Shown: positions 1 through 4,441 of the stretch, piece after piece
How positions within the stretch are numbered: position 1 is the stretch's first letter
Layout of the letters: each line of letters opens with the position of its first letter
From: a virus
Lineage: Duplodnaviria; Heunggongvirae; Uroviricota; Caudoviricetes
Reading direction: 5' to 3' (one strand)
Length of the DNA stretch: 4,441 bases
Virus record (IMG/VR): IMGVR_UViG_2671180608_000007
Location: 1-4,441 of that record
Notes under the pieces: generated by a model
The model's input: the letters and a program-made list of their open reading frames with translations, nothing else
Database searches by the model: none
What the model was told of the DNA's origin: nothing
Position numbers and translations under genes: made by a program

Positions 1-137
1 TAACAGGTGTCTGGAAATATAGGGGCAAATCCAGCGTTCATCAGCCCCCGCATTGCCGACAGGATCACAGACGGGGGGCGCAACTGGTTGTCGTTCAACT
101 GGCCCAGCTACCGTTCTTGTATCAGAGGTGTGGCTGC

Positions 138-1529
138 ATGACAACACCAGTCTGGCGTAATGATGACCTGGAAGGCGCTGTCATTGGCGCATTCTTTCTG
201 CGTGGGGCAGATCATGAAGTGATGGATATTCTGATCACACTACCGGCGGACATTTTTTCTGTACGAGCGTATCGGGATATCTACACAGGCATCTGCAGAC
301 AGGCCCGTGTTTCAGGAGTGATTGACCCCGTGCTGTTGTGTAATGAGATGCCGGAACTTGCCCCGGTGATTACTGATACCGGGCGTAAAACCTGGGTGAA
401 GTCTTCACTGGAGCACTATGTTGCAGCGTTGCGGCGCAATGCCGCACTGCGCGATGCAGAAAAAACACTGAATGAGGCGCTGCAGAAATTACGTGATGCG
501 CATACCTGTGAAGCAGCTGAAGATGCCCTGAAGGATGCGCAGAACATGATGGTCACACTGTCGACAGGAAAGGGCGTCATTCAGCCGGTACATATTGATG
601 ATGTGCTTCCGGAAGTGGTTGAGCGTGTTGAATGCCGGAATCAGGGGCTGGAGAAATCCAGGACGTTGATGACCGGTATTGATGAACTGGACGCAAAAAC
701 AGGCGGTATGGAGCCCGGAGACCTGGTATTCATTGCCGCCCGTCCTTCGATGGGGAAAACCGAACTTGCGCTGGACATCATCGACAAGGTGACTGAGCAG
801 GGGCATGGTGTGCTTCTGTTCACCATGGAGATGGCGAACATCCAGATTGGTGAACGTATGGTGTCTGCGGCTGGAGGGATGCCAGTATCACGCCTGAAAT
901 CTGTGGCTCACTTTGAAGATGAAGACTGGGCGCGTTTCTCACAAGGGGTGGGGCGGATGACCGGGCGCAATATCTGGATGGTGGACCAGGCGAACCTGAC
1001 CATTGATGAGATATGCGCAACAACGAAACACCATCTGATTAAACATCCGGAAACGGCGCTGGTGGTGGTTGATTATCTCGGGCTGATAAAAACCCGAACC
1101 ACGGGGCGTCATGACCTTGCCGTGGGTGAAATCTCAAAGGGGCTTAAAGGCCTGGCAAAATCCGGTGGTTTTCCGTTGATTGCGCTGAGCCAGCTCTCCC
1201 GCGGTGTGGAGTCCAGACCCAATAAACGTCCCATGAACTCAGACCTGAAAAATTCCGGAGAAATAGAGGCGGATGCAGACATCATTCTGATGCTTTACAG
1301 GGATGAAGTGTACAACCCGGATACACAGGCTACAGGCATAGCAGAAATTAATATCACGAAACAACGTAACGGTTCTCTGGGGACGATTTACCGGCGTTTT
1401 TATAACGGACATTTTCTGCCTGTGGACCAGGAAAGCGCACAGGTTCTTTCCACCCCAATGCGGCAGCCCCAGCCGCGCAGATACAGCAATACACGTACCG
1501 ACAGCAGTAAGATGGAGCGTTTCTTTTGA
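138..1529 (+). CDS. Replicative DNA helicase, DnaB family (phage-encoded, P22 gp12-like)
   Basis: Translation carries a DnaB-type Walker A (AARPSMGKTELALD), a Walker B-like hydrophobic stretch ending in D (LVVVDYLGLI) and C-terminal DnaB-like blocks (SGGFPLIALSQLSRGVESRPNKRPMNSDLKNSGEIEADADIILMLYRDEVY, ITKQRNG). Start chosen at ATG 138 because GAGGTG sits 8 nt upstream; the track's TTG at 117 is the alternative. The frame is open to the window edge, so a start further upstream cannot be excluded. Confidence 0.9.
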   Translation: MTTPVWRNDDLEGAVIGAFFLRGADHEVMDILITLPADIFSVRAYRDIYTGICRQARVSGVIDPVLLCNEMPELAPVITDTGRKTWVKSSLEHYVAALRRNAALRDAEKTLNEALQKLRDAHTCEAAEDALKDAQNMMVTLSTGKGVIQPVHIDDVLPEVVERVECRNQGLEKSRTLMTGIDELDAKTGGMEPGDLVFIAARPSMGKTELALDIIDKVTEQGHGVLLFTMEMANIQIGERMVSAAGGMPVSRLKSVAHFEDEDWARFSQGVGRMTGRNIWMVDQANLTIDEICATTKHHLIKHPETALVVVDYLGLIKTRTTGRHDLAVGEISKGLKGLAKSGGFPLIALSQLSRGVESRPNKRPMNSDLKNSGEIEADADIILMLYRDEVYNPDTQATGIAEINITKQRNGSLGTIYRRFYNGHFLPVDQESAQVLSTPMRQPQPRRYSNTRTDSSKMERFF

Positions 1530-1783
1530 ACAACCAGACAATGACTTTTACCTCTGAACAATTGCGTAAACACGCGCAGGAAATGTTGCGACAGGCGGAA
1601 CAACTGGAAAAAACAGGTGTAACAAAAGATGCCATTCGTCGGGATATGGTGCCAGCGCTCAGGGAACTGATGCAGGCGAAACATCGCGCACAAAAAGCGG
1701 TGGATGAGCTCGTTGATTGTGTGGCAGAGCTGGAAACCAAAGTTGGAAAGTTTGAAAAAATGGTGCAGGAGGTGCTGCGCTGA
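1526..1783 (+). CDS. Hypothetical small protein (85 aa, predicted coiled coil) in the nin-region position
   Basis: Uninterrupted ORF packed between helicase and rusA. Its TTG start overlaps the helicase stop (TTTTGA) and its stop overlaps the rusA start (TGATG), suggesting translational coupling. Alternative start is ATG 1541. Charged, heptad-like sequence (EQLRKHAQEMLRQAEQLEK...). No family recognised. Confidence 0.5.
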   Translation: MNNQTMTFTSEQLRKHAQEMLRQAEQLEKTGVTKDAIRRDMVPALRELMQAKHRAQKAVDELVDCVAELETKVGKFEKMVQEVLR

Positions 1784-2154
1784 TGCGCCATGAGTTTATT
1801 TTACCTTATCCGCCGACGGTGAATACTTACTGGCGACGTCGTGGCAGCACATATTTTGTATCAAAAGTTGGTGAGCGTTATCGCCGTGATGTGACGCTAA
1901 TTGTTCGCCAGCAGCGGCTGAAATTAAACCTGTCCGGAAGGCTGGCGATAAAGATTATTGCAGAGCCACCGGATAAGCGCCGTCGTGACCTGGACAATAT
2001 CCTGAAAGCACCACTGGATGCGCTGACGCATGCCGGACTACTCATAGACGACGAGCAGTTTGATGAAATCAATATTGTGCGCGGTCAGCTCGTTCCTGGT
2101 GGGCGACTGGGCGTGAAGATTTATGAAATCACAGGTGATAACGATGGCGCGTGA
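1783..2154 (+). CDS. rusA: Crossover junction endodeoxyribonuclease RusA (Holliday junction resolvase)
   Basis: 123-aa product with the RusA signature ([15 protein letters not shown] ... [30 protein letters not shown]) and the acidic residues of the DxD/D catalytic cluster. GGAGG lies about 10 nt upstream of ATG 1783. Sits just before Q, as in phage 82 and DLP12. Confidence 0.9.
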
Positions 2155-2530
2155 TATTCAGCAGGTTATGGAACGGTGGGGGGCTTGGGCTGCAAACACT
2201 CATGAAGATGTATCCTGGGCGTCGATCGCTGCTGGTTTTAAAGGGTTAATTCCGTCGAAAGTGAAATCACGCCCTCAGTGTTCTGATGATGATGCAATGA
2301 TAATTTGTGGCTGTATGGCCCGGTTGAACAAGAAAAATCAGGATTTGCACGATTTGCTGGTGGATTATTACGTAGGTGGAATGACTTTTATGAGTCTGGC
2401 ACGGAAACATGGGTGTTCGGATACCTGTATTGGCAAGCGCCTGCAGAAAGCGGAAGGGGTTATTGATGGCATGTTGATGATGCTTGATATCCGGCTGGAG
2501 ATGGACAGATACGTAGAACGAATTATGTAG
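2144..2530 (+). CDS. Late-gene antitermination protein, small Q-like family (QuuD-like)
   Basis: 128-aa product ([23 protein letters not shown]...[20 protein letters not shown]...[22 protein letters not shown]) closely resembles the small Q-like antiterminators of E. coli cryptic prophages (QuuD, recalled from memory). Start at ATG 2144 with AGGTGA 5 nt upstream; it overlaps the rusA stop (ATGGCGCGTGA). The track's 2123 ATG lies inside rusA and is the less likely start. Confidence 0.85.
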
Positions 2531-2534
2531 GTGC

Positions 2535-2564
2535 TTGACCAGACACATTGTCCGGGGCTATATT
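2535..2564 (+). promoter_or_regulatory. Candidate late promoter PR' (sigma70 -35 TTGACC / 18-bp spacer / -10 TATATT)
   Basis: TTGACC at 2535-2540 and TATATT at 2559-2564, beginning 5 bp after the Q stop codon. This is the canonical position of PR' relative to Q in lambdoid phages. Predicted transcription start is about 2571. Confidence 0.5.
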
Positions 2565-2571
2565 CCTCACG

Positions 2572-2589
2572 CGCCAGCAAAATCTGGCG
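2572..2589 (+). promoter_or_regulatory. Perfect 6-bp inverted repeat in the initial transcribed region (candidate qut / pause-site hairpin)
   Basis: CGCCAG-caaaat-CTGGCG at 2572-2577 and 2584-2589, directly after the predicted start. The loop CAAAAT is a weak -10-like hexamer of the kind that causes sigma-dependent pausing at lambdoid late promoters. Confidence 0.35.
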
Positions 2590-2625
2590 TCGGGATTGGA
2601 ACCCCGGATAGAGACCGCGACAGAC

Positions 2626-2650
2626 ACACGCCGCGAGCGTGTTTTTTATT
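2626..2650 (+). terminator. Intrinsic terminator (tR'-like) ending a ~75-nt leader transcript
   Basis: 6-bp GC-rich stem ACACGC / GCGTGT (2626-2631 and 2637-2642) with a 5-nt loop, followed by TTTTTTATT. Confidence 0.6.
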
Positions 2651-2775
2651 GTCGTATGCACGCGCACATCTGAATTATGGTGGGGCGCATGGGGGAGCTG
2701 AAAAGCTCGCCGGTCGGTTTCCCGGTAGTTCCAACCCTGTGCGTCTCACCACCCGATGATTGGAACCTGACGGTG

Positions 2776-2804
2776 TTGACAGTTTCAGGTTTGCAGTTTA
2801 CATT
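2776..2804 (+). promoter_or_regulatory. Candidate sigma70 promoter for the ORF6N gene (-35 TTGACA / 17-bp spacer / -10 TACATT)
   Basis: Consensus -35 TTGACA at 2776-2781 and a 4/6 -10 at 2799-2804. It is preceded by a 7-bp inverted repeat GTTCCAA / TTGGAAC (2728-2734 and 2760-2766). Confidence 0.3.
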
Positions 2805-3010
2805 TCCCCGCGGTGCTCAAAACACCTCGAAAGCGGTATCCACACCCGATAGCCATGTGGTTTTTTTGTGTCCAGAATTCTTGGTTTATGACCGGGTGTG
2901 CGGCTAATACAATACCAGCAATGGAAATACGCCCGCCGACTTTCGACGGTTTTGAGCGCCCGGTCACCCTCTCAAAAGGGGTAAATCAAAATATTCGAAA
3001 GGACATGTCT

Positions 3011-3574
3011 ATGAATCGCACGTCTATTGAAAAACTCCCGTCACTTACGCATAACCATCTTCCTGTCATGACAACAGAGCTGCTGGCTGATTTGTACGGA
3101 ACAGAGCGCCAGCGTTTGACAAACAATTTCAATCGAAACAAAGAACGGTTTATAGAAGGTAAACATTTTTTCCTGATAGAAGGTGATGCGTTACGAGAGT
3201 TGAAGAACGAAAACTCTTTAAGAGTTTCTGTGAAAATTGCCCGTAACGTTCGCTCCCTCATCCTCTGGACAGAACGTGGCGCAGCCCGTCACGCCAAAAT
3301 GCTCGAAACCGATCAGGCGTGGGAAGTGTTCGAAAAACTGGAAGACTGTTATTTCAACCAGAAACAGCCACCAGCGGCACAAAACACATCTATCGAAAAT
3401 GATGGATGCGCATTACTGAGCCACTTCGATAAACACGGTCAGGTTGAGTTCACGGAAAAGGTACCCGCCGATGCGATGGTATGTACTCTGGAACGGTTTA
3501 AATTTTATCTGGAGCAACATGGGTGGATCGTTGCCCGTAAAGAACAATTGGTGGAAAGGTTGATGCGGTTTTAA
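3011..3574 (+). CDS. ORF6N/KilA-N-like DNA-binding domain protein (phage antirepressor-like accessory gene), 187 aa
   Basis: The N-terminal 100 residues match the ORF6N-type pattern (LADLYGTERQRLTNNFNRNKERFIEGKHFFLIEGDALRELK...SLILWTERGAARHAKMLETDQAWEVFEKLED). The C-terminal 85 aa are unrecognised. Start at ATG 3011 with AAGGA 7 nt upstream; ATG 3005 is in frame. The track's 2813 start adds a Trp/Cys/Phe-rich, non-protein-like extension across the promoter and T-run and is judged unlikely. Confidence 0.7.
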   Translation: MNRTSIEKLPSLTHNHLPVMTTELLADLYGTERQRLTNNFNRNKERFIEGKHFFLIEGDALRELKNENSLRVSVKIARNVRSLILWTERGAARHAKMLETDQAWEVFEKLEDCYFNQKQPPAAQNTSIENDGCALLSHFDKHGQVEFTEKVPADAMVCTLERFKFYLEQHGWIVARKEQLVERLMRF

Positions 3575-3700
3575 TGAATGCAAAACCCCGGATGATCACC
3601 GAGGTTAATTTTATCGAGCGTGATTGCCGCTAATCGCCATCGCTCTGATTGAGCGTAAATCATTCAGGTTATTCAGTTCTTCCTTCTGCTCTCGCTGACG

Positions 3701-3871
3701 TCAATAAATCCCATCATTGCGATCAACCTCATCCTTAACCATTGATGCGAGCAGTTCTTCCAGTTTCTGCGCTGACAGCTTTACCTGGTGATCTTCAGCA
3801 TCTTCCCGGGCTATTGTGGTTCGCGCAGTGGCTGATTTTGCTGACATCACCACAGGGGGCAGACGGACCAT
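3701..3871 (-). CDS. Hypothetical small protein (56 aa), convergent with the ORF6N gene
   Basis: ATG at 3871 with GGAGG 10 nt upstream (CCTCC at 3882-3886 on the + strand). Hydrophilic, helix-like product (MVRLPPVVMSAKSATARTTIAREDAEDHQVKLSAQKLEELLASMVKDEVDRNDGIY). The track's longer form from TTG 3982 would add a hydrophobic segment (LSIVVVIFALICSGG) and start 4 nt after the tfa-remnant stop. No family recognised. Confidence 0.35.
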   Translation of the reverse strand: MVRLPPVVMSAKSATARTTIAREDAEDHQVKLSAQKLEELLASMVKDEVDRNDGIY

Positions 3872-3985
3872 TGAACCATGGCCTCCGGAACAAATAAGGG
3901 CAAAAATAACAACCACTATCGAAAGCTCACAAACTAACCGCAGCACGTTCCTGCATACGACGTGTCTGCGGCATAATCCCAATGA

Positions 3986-4219
3986 TTACTCCCTGACAGG
4001 ATTTGCAGGCCACTCAATATCAGGTGCAGTTGATGTATCAACACGATTCAACAATACCCGATATTTATTCCATGCCTCCAGCAACGATCTTTCTTCCTCC
4101 GTTGCGATTTCCAGATCTACAGCATCCTGCAGTGGCGCAATATACTCACTAAATTCCTGGATGTAGAACTGTGTGGTGACGGTCTTCCAGCCATTCGGCT
4201 CCTGCTGTATCGAAGCATA
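3986..4219 (-). pseudogene. tfa: Tail fibre assembly protein (Tfa) 3' remnant, C-terminal 77 codons with no start codon
   Basis: Hand translation of the minus strand gives ...[53 protein letters not shown] then TAA (3988-3986), which is the conserved C-terminus of lambdoid/e14/Rac-type Tfa proteins. The frame is closed by an in-frame TAG at 4222-4220 with no ATG, GTG or TTG codon in between, so it is a 5'-truncated fragment. It is absent from the supplied ORF track. Confidence 0.75.
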
Positions 4220-4240
4220 CTAGGCTATTTCAATATCGCT

Positions 4241-4255
4241 ATGCTGCGGCAGCAT
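4241..4255. repeat. 15-bp palindrome ATGCTGC-G-GCAGCAT (candidate operator or hairpin)
   Basis: Perfect 7-bp arms around a central G, about 10 bp upstream of promoter-like hexamers and about 20 bp beyond the tfa truncation point. Confidence 0.4.
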
Positions 4256-4323
4256 TTAACCCCTTGTAATTCATCGCCATAATTGATTTAATTCACAAAT
4301 AAAACTATAACATGGTGAAATCA

Positions 4324-4383
4324 ATGAAAACAAACACAGATGATGGGGCTAAAATTTACACACCACTTACCCTAAAGCTTTAA
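4324..4383 (+). CDS. Very short ORF (19 aa, MKTNTDDGAKIYTPLTLKL) inside a promoter-to-terminator mini-unit; possibly the body of a small RNA instead
   Basis: ATG 4324 with GGTGA 5 nt upstream; an in-frame ATG at 4312 would give 23 aa. Promoter-like hexamers lie upstream (TTGTAA 4264-4269 with TTTAAT 4287-4292, or TTGATT 4283-4288 with TATAAC 4306-4311) and the intrinsic terminator lies 11 nt downstream. The product is hydrophilic, so not a type I toxin. Confidence 0.2.
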   Translation: MKTNTDDGAKIYTPLTLKL

Positions 4384-4393
4384 CACACAGCTT

Positions 4394-4420
4394 AAACCCG
4401 CCGATGAGCGGGTTTTTTTA
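4394..4420 (+). terminator. Intrinsic (rho-independent) terminator
   Basis: Stem CCCGC / GCGGG (4397-4401 and 4408-4412), extendable by A:T pairs, with loop CGATGA and followed by seven T (4413-4419). The + strand orientation is favoured because the minus-strand side has only a short T tract. Confidence 0.6.
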
Positions 4421-4441
4421 TACCTGAAAAACGGCACAGGA

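Follow-up and report, generated by a model that had tools for sequence, protein, structure and literature searches.

The 4,441-nucleotide stretch analysed here (the window: positions 1 to 4,441 of IMG/VR virus record IMGVR_UViG_2671180608_000007) is a replication-to-late-regulation stretch of a phiP27-like lambdoid prophage. The DNA behind its late antiterminator gene Q, positions 2531-4441, is in all probability the variable cargo zone between Q and the lysis genes of phiP27-/Gifsy-like lambdoid prophages, and not a deletion joint. The first-pass annotation of this DNA had expected lysis and terminase genes within 1 to 2 kb of Q and, seeing none, had proposed that a large deletion joined the late regulatory region to the tail-fibre end of the prophage. 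The same zone carries two tandem RNA modules ahead of an antirepressor-family gene with an ORF6N domain.

Positions 2531-4441 were compared against 5,426 complete Escherichia coli genomes, and the junction within them was sought in GTDB representatives, IMG/VR and JGI metagenomes. Sixteen loci were fetched as relatives. Fourteen match window positions 1-3574 at 99.84-99.86% identity, and 13 of these are also 100% identical over 4384-4441; a 97.9% variant (locus L008) and the complete prophage of E. coli MEI7BO1-21 (locus L001) stand outside this group. The complete chromosomes among the matches include 75/02 (CP019689) and 2015C-3794 (CP022455), and these two of the fourteen near-identical loci are documented as Shigella sonnei. 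The S. sonnei remnant in both has the same insertion sequence (IS) junction, helicase gene, 85-amino-acid (aa) open reading frame (ORF), RusA, Q, RNA modules and ORF6N gene as the window; it differs at five synonymous sites, and the last 58 bp are 100% identical. The terminal repeat at this junction (positions 1-33) belongs to an element that we take to be IS2. The exact ORF6N and Q protein sequences are present in thousands of assemblies, ORF6N in about 3,900 assembly blocks; the longer, 189-aa form of ORF6N had no record. The phiP27-like character is seen in the helicase loader and DnaB helicase followed by Q, and in the HNH, Terminase_4 and large terminase subunit (TerL) genes of the relatives. 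The helicase region has 94.4% DNA identity to phiP27 over window positions 34-1787 and is 93% identical to L001.

The genes missing from the window are found beyond its end in these relatives. In S. sonnei, the window end corresponds to position 10687 of locus L004. Genes for tRNA-Met, tRNA-Arg, tRNA-Thr and tRNA-Gly (CAT, TCT, TGT and TCC) lie at L004 10754-11064, the first of them 67 bp past the window end. A 71-aa phage-21-type holin gene (PF04971) starts at L004 11745, 1,058 bp beyond the window end. It is followed by the genes for a 165-aa lysozyme (PF00959), Rz with an embedded 61-aa Rz1 lipoprotein ORF, and HNH, and then by the Terminase_4 small subunit (about 2.7 kb past the window end), TerL, a 60-aa ORF and the portal gene, which IS4 interrupts. 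The lysis cassette shows 87.5% DNA identity to essD-rrrD-rzpD of DLP12, a cryptic prophage of E. coli K-12. The endolysin of the S. sonnei relatives is described as being of the signal-arrest-release type, and the same type would be expected in the genome of the window.

The absence of holin, endolysin, Rz and terminase genes from 2531-4441 was correctly observed, and it is real inside the window but is a result of where the window ends. A lysis cassette and a terminase do follow Q in the near-identical relatives. The annotation had itself stated that lysis and structural genes immediately beyond the window would mean a different gene order and not a deletion, and lysis genes are located just past this point in loci matching at 99.86-100%. 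The window's own genome would continue past position 4441 as its relatives do. The four-tRNA cluster is a repeat, which may explain a draft contig stopping at the window end. Within the window, tRNA genes such as those of Stx phages were sought with ARAGORN and none was found.

The expected 1 to 2 kb between Q and the lysis genes was also too narrow. The distance from the Q stop to the holin start ranges from 1.9 to 5.3 kb in relatives, viable phages included. It is 1,908 bp in each of the E. coli prophages L001 and L023, 2,224 bp in S. sonnei L004, 2,707 bp in viable Gifsy-1 (with a tRNA, small RNAs (sRNAs) and the minus-strand effector gene gogA), 3,709 bp in E. coli A8, 4,942 bp in viable phiP27 (including stx2e), and 5,327 bp in E. 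coli EC71, where a 3.1-kb minus-strand gene lies inside. The corresponding distance in the window's genome would be about 2,968 bp. phiP27 and L001 share the gene order Q, cargo, tRNAs or other cargo, lysis, HNH, P27-family small terminase subunit, TerL and portal. L001 likewise has isrK, C4 and an ORF6N gene downstream of Q, whereas the cargo zone of phiP27 holds a GIY-YIG gene, a methyltransferase gene and stx2e, and its Q allele differs from that of the window. Both prophages are complete, and their lysis cassettes are of a two-holin type, not the phage-21 type. The L001 endolysin is a GH108 protein; the phiP27 record states "endolysin" alone.

The last 58 bp of the window are not tail-end DNA and belong to the Q-to-lysis backbone. 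This 58-bp element was found in 3,570 of the 5,426 E. coli genomes. Four E. coli prophages (L001, L022, L023 and L024) have it between the Q and holin genes, in DLP12 it stands just ahead of essD, and lysis genes come after it in every context inspected. In the 97.9% identical L008, its terminator hairpin is missing (L008 10630-10660). This small deletion, in which CACACAG jumps to AAACGGCACAGGA, is located just upstream of the lysis region. A Trp_leader match at 4335-4421 (26 bits vs a gathering score of 41) was rejected as a chance resemblance produced by a 23-codon truncated ORF and a terminator.

The tail-fibre debris lies in an 809-bp patch between the ORF6N gene and this element. In the S. 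sonnei chromosomes, only 65 bp occupy the spot of the patch; there and in L001, the ORF6N stop is followed by the 65-bp connector and then by the sequence of window 4384-4441. The patch together with the end of ORF6N (3540-4382) is 99.5% identical to DNA in 811 of the 5,426 complete E. coli genomes. In E. coli ST131 H105 (L002) and APEC O1 (L021), this donor-type DNA is the far right end of a prophage beside the trp operon. The donor-type prophage sits in ompW in H105, where the order is isrK and C4, a Rha-family antirepressor gene, a DUF4376 pseudogene, a Tfa fragment and an S-adenosylmethionine (SAM) methyltransferase gene. A 116-aa ORF within the patch is called as a gene solely in APEC O1 (CP000468), in the donor-type context beside trp/ompW.

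The left edge of the patch can be followed base by base. The S. sonnei base is found at eight of eight informative sites in 3401-3487 and the donor (ompW-prophage) base at five of five sites in 3520-3557; the five changed sites in the end of ORF6N are all synonymous. The crossover is placed between these two runs because the single-nucleotide polymorphisms (SNPs) switch there from S. sonnei to donor type. This left crossover would be homologous, within the antirepressor C-terminal coding region common to both genes. At the right joint, the methyltransferase gene breaks off after its first 23 codons in a newly formed stop codon, and no ORF spans this junction. The patch probably arose when the window's backbone, as the presumed recipient, recombined with a paralogous isrK-C4-antirepressor module that ends an ompW-site prophage.

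Several points weigh against the cargo-zone interpretation. In the 5,426 complete E. coli genomes, positions 2531-4441 have no match that extends over 80% or more of their length, and the patch junction, searched as a 47-mer and a 24-mer, was unmatched in GTDB representative genomes, IMG/VR and JGI metagenomes. The right joint (4382/4384) has no shared bases or microhomology. Continuity past position 4441, which lies outside the DNA in hand, rests on 58 identical bases and the synteny of the relatives.

It is nevertheless extremely improbable that a large internal deletion removed the lysis and morphogenesis genes and brought the late regulatory region up against the tail-fibre end. Such an event would explain why tail-fibre and Tfa fragments are found 0.5-1.7 kb behind Q and why the window has no lysis gene, and DLP12 has a true terminase-to-Tfa fusion beside the same tfaX-ybcY DNA. 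The debris, though, is on the strand opposite to Q and is therefore not a co-linear deletion product, which would keep the Q strand; this sets it apart from the same-strand co-linear joints of the DLP12, Rac, Qin and e14 type. The backbone on either side of the patch is contiguous in relatives, it resumes at 4384 in the window, and the lysis, HNH and terminase genes are present downstream in the near-identical loci. The patch is also of foreign type, with 99.5% identity to the ompW-site prophage, while the backbone is 93% identical to its closest E. coli relative. The comparison with DLP12 points the same way. Its tfaX-ybcY DNA is about 93% identical to the Tfa fragment and methyltransferase start of the window, but its tail debris follows a true terminase-to-Tfa deletion joint at the prophage end, whereas that of the window is an inverted insert upstream of an apparently intact lysis/terminase block.

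It is very unlikely that the patch is ancestral and was deleted in the S. sonnei and E. coli relatives. The ORF6N gene of L001 is C-terminally truncated, so deletions do occur at this spot. A deletion, however, would not create the 65-bp connector that is common to the S. sonnei loci and L001 (93%), and the switch from S. sonnei identity (to 3487) to donor SNPs (from 3520) marks the tract as imported. A chimeric assembly of a short draft contig is very unlikely as well. It would fit the extent of the window, which, in the manner of short-read contigs, runs from within an IS end to a point shortly before a repeated tRNA cluster; the left boundary lies inside a 178-bp segment common to two loci at about 93% identity, the exact ORF6N protein is mostly on contigs of 2-10 kb, and the junction has no counterpart in the collections searched. 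Against it, the right joint has no shared sequence to mislead an assembler, and the patch differs at four positions from every donor-type sequence inspected. The proposed deletion is thus an edge-of-window artefact over a real but ordinary recombination scar in the Q-to-lysis cargo zone.

The prophage is defective, as had been suggested, for reasons other than the proposed late-region deletion. It is defective because IS2 removed everything to the left of the helicase gene, and because in the relatives the portal gene is cut by IS4 and the head and tail genes are missing. Window positions 1-370 are 100% identical to S. sonnei loci with a 409-aa HTH_Tnp_1/rve transposase gene directly upstream; the corresponding IS3-family element in L004 (5700-7030) is 1,331 bp long and multicopy. 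Similarity to intact relatives begins at window position 34, and the S. sonnei DNA left of the junction is unrelated to the intact relative. On the right, the phage DNA of the S. sonnei relatives ends where IS4 cuts the portal gene at 343 aa. About 10 kb of phage DNA is left in these relatives, from the helicase to the portal fragment, and it has no capsid, tail, immunity or cognate integrase genes next to it. The helicase, RusA and Q genes were confirmed to be intact, in agreement with the first reading of the replication and Q genes. The features of the window are collected in Table 1.

Table 1 Features of the window from the IS junction to the resumed backbone, in window coordinates.
Feature	Position	Strand	Remarks
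IS3-family element, right end	1-33	+	Interrupts helicase-loader gene
DnaC-like helicase-loader 3' remnant, last 36 codons	34-141	+	Aligns with end of L001 "ATP-binding protein" gene (19230-20108)
DnaB-type replicative helicase, 463 aa, intact	138-1529	+	
85-aa ORF	Between helicase and RusA		
RusA Holliday-junction resolvase, 123 aa	1783-2154	+	PF05866
Antiterminator Q, 128 aa, intact	2144-2530	+	PF06530, E 2.2e-52, 117/118 model positions; phrog_79
Sigma-70-type promoter, TTGACC-18-TATATT	2535-2564	+	10/12 consensus matches; candidate isrK promoter and PR'
c4-a1b1/IsrK RNA	2558-2647	+	isrK 77.5 bits (gathering 50); c4-a1b1 50.1 bits (gathering 46.7)
C4-type antisense RNA, module I	2673-2756	+	Rfam C4, 71 bits (gathering 45)
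b2 target repeat GATTGGAACC	2758-2767	+	10-nt direct repeat of 2594-2603
Module II promoter-like sequence, TTGACA-17-TACATT	2776-2804	+	Consensus match only
Decoy site a1, GCTCAAAAC (RNA GCUCAAAAC)	2815-2823	+	In predicted hairpin loop
Decoy site b1, TCGAAAG (UCGAAAG)	2827-2833	+	
sRNA-Xcc1-family RNA	2890-2973	+	RF02221, 77.4 bits (gathering 53), full model length
Xcc1 hairpin loop b', CUUUCGA; junction a', GUUUUGAGC	2940-2946; 2949-2957		Complementary to a1 and b1 sites
Target a2, UCAAAAU	2985-2991	+	Complementary to a', one G-U pair
Target b2, UCGAAAG	2995-3001	+	Overlaps ORF6N Shine-Dalgarno AAGGA before ATG 3005
ORF6N-domain antirepressor-family gene, 187 aa, intact (189 aa from ATG 3005)	3011-3574	+	Gifsy-1 AnrP homologue
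Homologous crossover interval (predicted), left edge of imported tract	3488-3519		
Prophage-end debris patch, 809 bp for 65 bp of backbone	3575-4383		Absent from S. sonnei loci and L001
Tail-fibre/DUF4376 pseudogene fragment, internal stop	3611-3982	-	L002 annotation; C-terminal matches to phrog_1141 and phrog_7703
Tail-fibre assembly (Tfa) C-terminal fragment, 77 codons, startless	3989-4219	-	Equivalent of DLP12 tfaX
AT-rich promoter region of methyltransferase gene	4223-4311		Precedes its start
Class I SAM methyltransferase start, 23 codons (DLP12 ybcY type)	4312-4383	+	Junction-made stop
Q-to-lysis backbone, resumed	4384-4441	+	100% to S. sonnei loci, 91% to L001
Intrinsic terminator hairpin in 58-bp element	4394-4415	+	

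The first inventory of 2531-4441, namely an ORF6N gene, a small ORF, a Tfa fragment and AT-rich DNA, was sound as far as it went. The ORF6N gene matches Pfam ORF6N (E 8.8e-21) and, over its full length, the PHROG anti-repressor family phrog_2379 (E 4.4e-85). The ORF described as small and unknown (3701-3982, minus strand, 93 codons) is a C-terminal scrap of a tail-fibre/DUF4376 gene, with a match to phrog_1141 (E 6.9e-10) and no Pfam match. The Tfa fragment covers only positions 75-130 of the 131-position Caudo_TAP model (E 3.7e-25). The candidate E. coli sRNA IS009 of Rfam overlaps it at 4029-4232 on the minus strand, with 110.8 bits, below the gathering score of 117. The AT-rich DNA (4223-4383, 161 bp) has 34.8% G+C vs 45-53% in the other segments. 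Ten further overlapping ORFs in 2531-4441 gave no lysis or morphogenesis match. Besides the last 58 bp, the part of the inventory that did not stand concerns positions 2531-3010, which are more than a PR'/tR' leader.

Four Rfam matches above the gathering score were found in 2531-3010: c4-a1b1 (2558-2610), isrK (2571-2647), C4 (2673-2756) and sRNA-Xcc1 (2890-2973). The first three form module I. The promoter directly behind Q is placed for a transcription start at about 2571, where the isrK match begins, and may be identical with the late promoter PR'. The IsrK RNA has a predicted fold of two hairpin loops and an intrinsic terminator (2626-2647). The junction GUUCCAA of the C4 RNA (2728-2734) is complementary to UUGGAAC both in the second IsrK loop (2596-2602) and directly after C4 (2760-2766). 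In module I, no second "a" pairing of at least 7 nt and no target over a ribosome-binding site were found in the window. Whole-RNA duplex energies of C4 and isrK with their neighbours were not separated from those of shuffled sequences, except for C4 vs Xcc1 (5/300 shuffles).

A 74-aa ORF (2535-2756) runs over isrK and C4 and shows weak matches to PHROG "transcriptional regulator" families, at profile positions that precede the regulator domains. It was rejected as a gene, and is probably translated conserved RNA. This suggests that those PHROG families contain N-terminally over-extended gene models running through conserved RNA. Similarly, coding sequences annotated as "ash family protein" in E. 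coli RefSeq, at L002 19349-19624 and L001 17118-17786, coincide with isrK and C4 (matches at L002 19385-19570 and L001 17175-17363), and such annotations may be translated RNA genes. L001 has two isrK-C4 modules within one prophage.

The order of the genes and RNAs mirrors antQ-isrK-orf45-anrP of Gifsy-1 (PMC4825925): Q, isrK/a1b1, C4 (the orf45/STnc1160 region) and a 187-aa ORF6N-type antirepressor gene. The isrK RNA of Gifsy-1 scores 79.3 bits vs 77.5 in the window. AnrP/STM2616 of Gifsy-1 is 49.5% identical to the window's ORF6N protein over 97% of the length, and both have 187 aa. By its sequence, the ORF6N product thus appears to be an AnrP-type antirepressor. In Gifsy-1, as here, more cargo and tRNA precede the holin gene. 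Q differs in length (128 aa and PF06530 in the window vs 225 aa in Gifsy-1), and no homologue of the Gifsy-1 isrJ was detected in the window.

The coupling of orf45 to the antirepressor gene was not retained. The orf45 AUGs of Gifsy-1 were placed at +107 and +119 from mutants (Hershko-Shalev et al. 2016, PMC4825925), and the equivalent AUGs of the window are at 2677 and 2689, also +107 and +119 when counted from 2571. The orf45 equivalent of the window has 76 codons and ends at 2907. This is 98 nt before ATG 3005, because a 220-bp second module (leader and sRNA-Xcc1) separates C4 from the antirepressor gene; neither Gifsy-1 nor L001 has these extra 220 bp. An orf45 that overlaps C4/STnc1160 and is coupled to the antirepressor gene is therefore not present in the window, and translational coupling in the style of Gifsy-1 is not possible there.

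The second module, module II, has its own decoy sites, antisense RNA and targets (Table 1), and its b2 target is located over the ribosome-binding site of the ORF6N gene, as in a C4-type system. With regard to maturation of such an antisense RNA by RNase P, a tRNA-like closing stem followed by CACCC was observed in the covariance-model matches. The homology to L001 ends right after the b2 site of module I and resumes at 3256. This break makes it look as though a single cassette, comprising the Xcc1 leader and the N-terminal domain of ORF6N, had been exchanged. The sequence CACACCCG (2841-2848) and the 5' strand of the closing stem of Xcc1 (2893-2900) are complementary, and this alternative pairing could possibly compete when the antisense RNA is formed or processed. 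A second intrinsic terminator at 2841-2870 was considered and set aside as unproven; it was not called by the scan, and the leader folds like shuffled sequences (z -0.13).

The pairing pattern extends to the sRNA-Xcc1 family in phages. A conserved core pattern of Xcc1 retrieved 120 IMG/VR loci, and the analysis covered 34 distinct RNAs whose closing stem is intact. Within 90 nt downstream, 33 of the 34 cognate pairings had a stretch of 7 nt or more perfectly complementary to hairpin 2 and the junction, vs 23.6% of the non-cognate ones; for the same RNAs, an upstream complement of at least 8 nt was present in 71% vs 11%. The cognate score was not reached in any of 5,000 permutations (0/5,000), with an automatic and imperfect definition of the loops. 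The loops vary by locus (CUUUCGA, CUACUUG, CUAGUGAG, CCUGUGG, CUCCAUGGG and others), and each target ends in AG, running into a Shine-Dalgarno sequence 1-20 nt before the start codon. The 31 ORFs that follow Xcc1 are of antirepressor-type families, including KilA-N (9), Bro-N (8), ORF6N (4), P22_AR_N (3), AntA (3) and Rha (2).

In phage P1, the c4/ant system consists of a processed antisense RNA inside the transcript that it controls, with upstream decoys and with targets at the ribosome-binding site of the gene leading to the antirepressor. The immI region of P1/P7 (c4, icd and ant) has the same logic as the RNA modules of the window. Unlike immI, the window has two tandem modules that lie downstream of Q in a lambdoid late region, with no icd, and its second RNA belongs to the Rfam family sRNA-Xcc1, not to C4. 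Rfam lists sRNA-Xcc1 without a clan, and the clan of C4 is CL00128.

The founding description of sRNA-Xcc1 reportedly concerned an RNA in an integron cassette with a trans-acting function, to judge by its title. The window and the 31 IMG/VR loci do not show this arrangement, and have sRNA-Xcc1 directly upstream of an antirepressor-family gene, with a loop that matches the ribosome-binding site of this gene. The searchable literature treats sRNA-Xcc1 as a trans-acting virulence sRNA, and its presence in APSE phages, ahead of an ORF6N gene described as of "unknown function", is noted in one paper. Xylella fastidiosa Temecula1 is reported to have five tandem sRNA-Xcc1 copies about 380 bp apart, and in X. 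fastidiosa De Donno, Xcc1, isrK and C4 are mutually adjacent (PMC12189769). These arrays indicate that tandem C4-like RNAs exist outside enterobacteria.

On balance, these data favour the Xcc1 RNA of the window being a second C4-type cis antisense repressor that masks the ORF6N ribosome-binding site, with the phage-wide family following c4/ant logic. With such a two-tier switch after Q, even a dead prophage could still release an antirepressor that cross-induces resident phages. Read-through driven by Q into the ORF6N gene, as proposed earlier, is plausible. Transcription alone would probably not express ORF6N, which stands behind two antisense-RNA switches. In the proposed mechanism, the promoter at 2535-2564 would make a short IsrK RNA halted at its own terminator, and the lysis and packaging genes would be reached by Q-modified polymerase that continues across C4, the Xcc1 module, the ORF6N gene and the patch, past the terminator at 4394-4415 and through the tRNA genes. 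The Xcc1-type RNA over the ribosome-binding site would keep ORF6N from being translated unless the upstream decoy RNA titrates this antisense RNA. The patch would be passive cargo in this transcript.

As a caution, the absence of genes at a window edge is no evidence of deletion, since cargo between Q and holin is routinely 2-5 kb in phiP27-/Gifsy-like phages. The deletion question itself matters little, and the RNA architecture is the sole part worth follow-up. The patch shows that paralogous antirepressor modules let prophages, dead ones too, swap flanking DNA. If the proposed control is correct, sRNA-Xcc1, now annotated as a virulence sRNA, would gain a concrete and testable function as an immunity RNA of antirepressor genes, and antirepressor genes in prophage remnants, which could induce other prophages, would be under RNA control.

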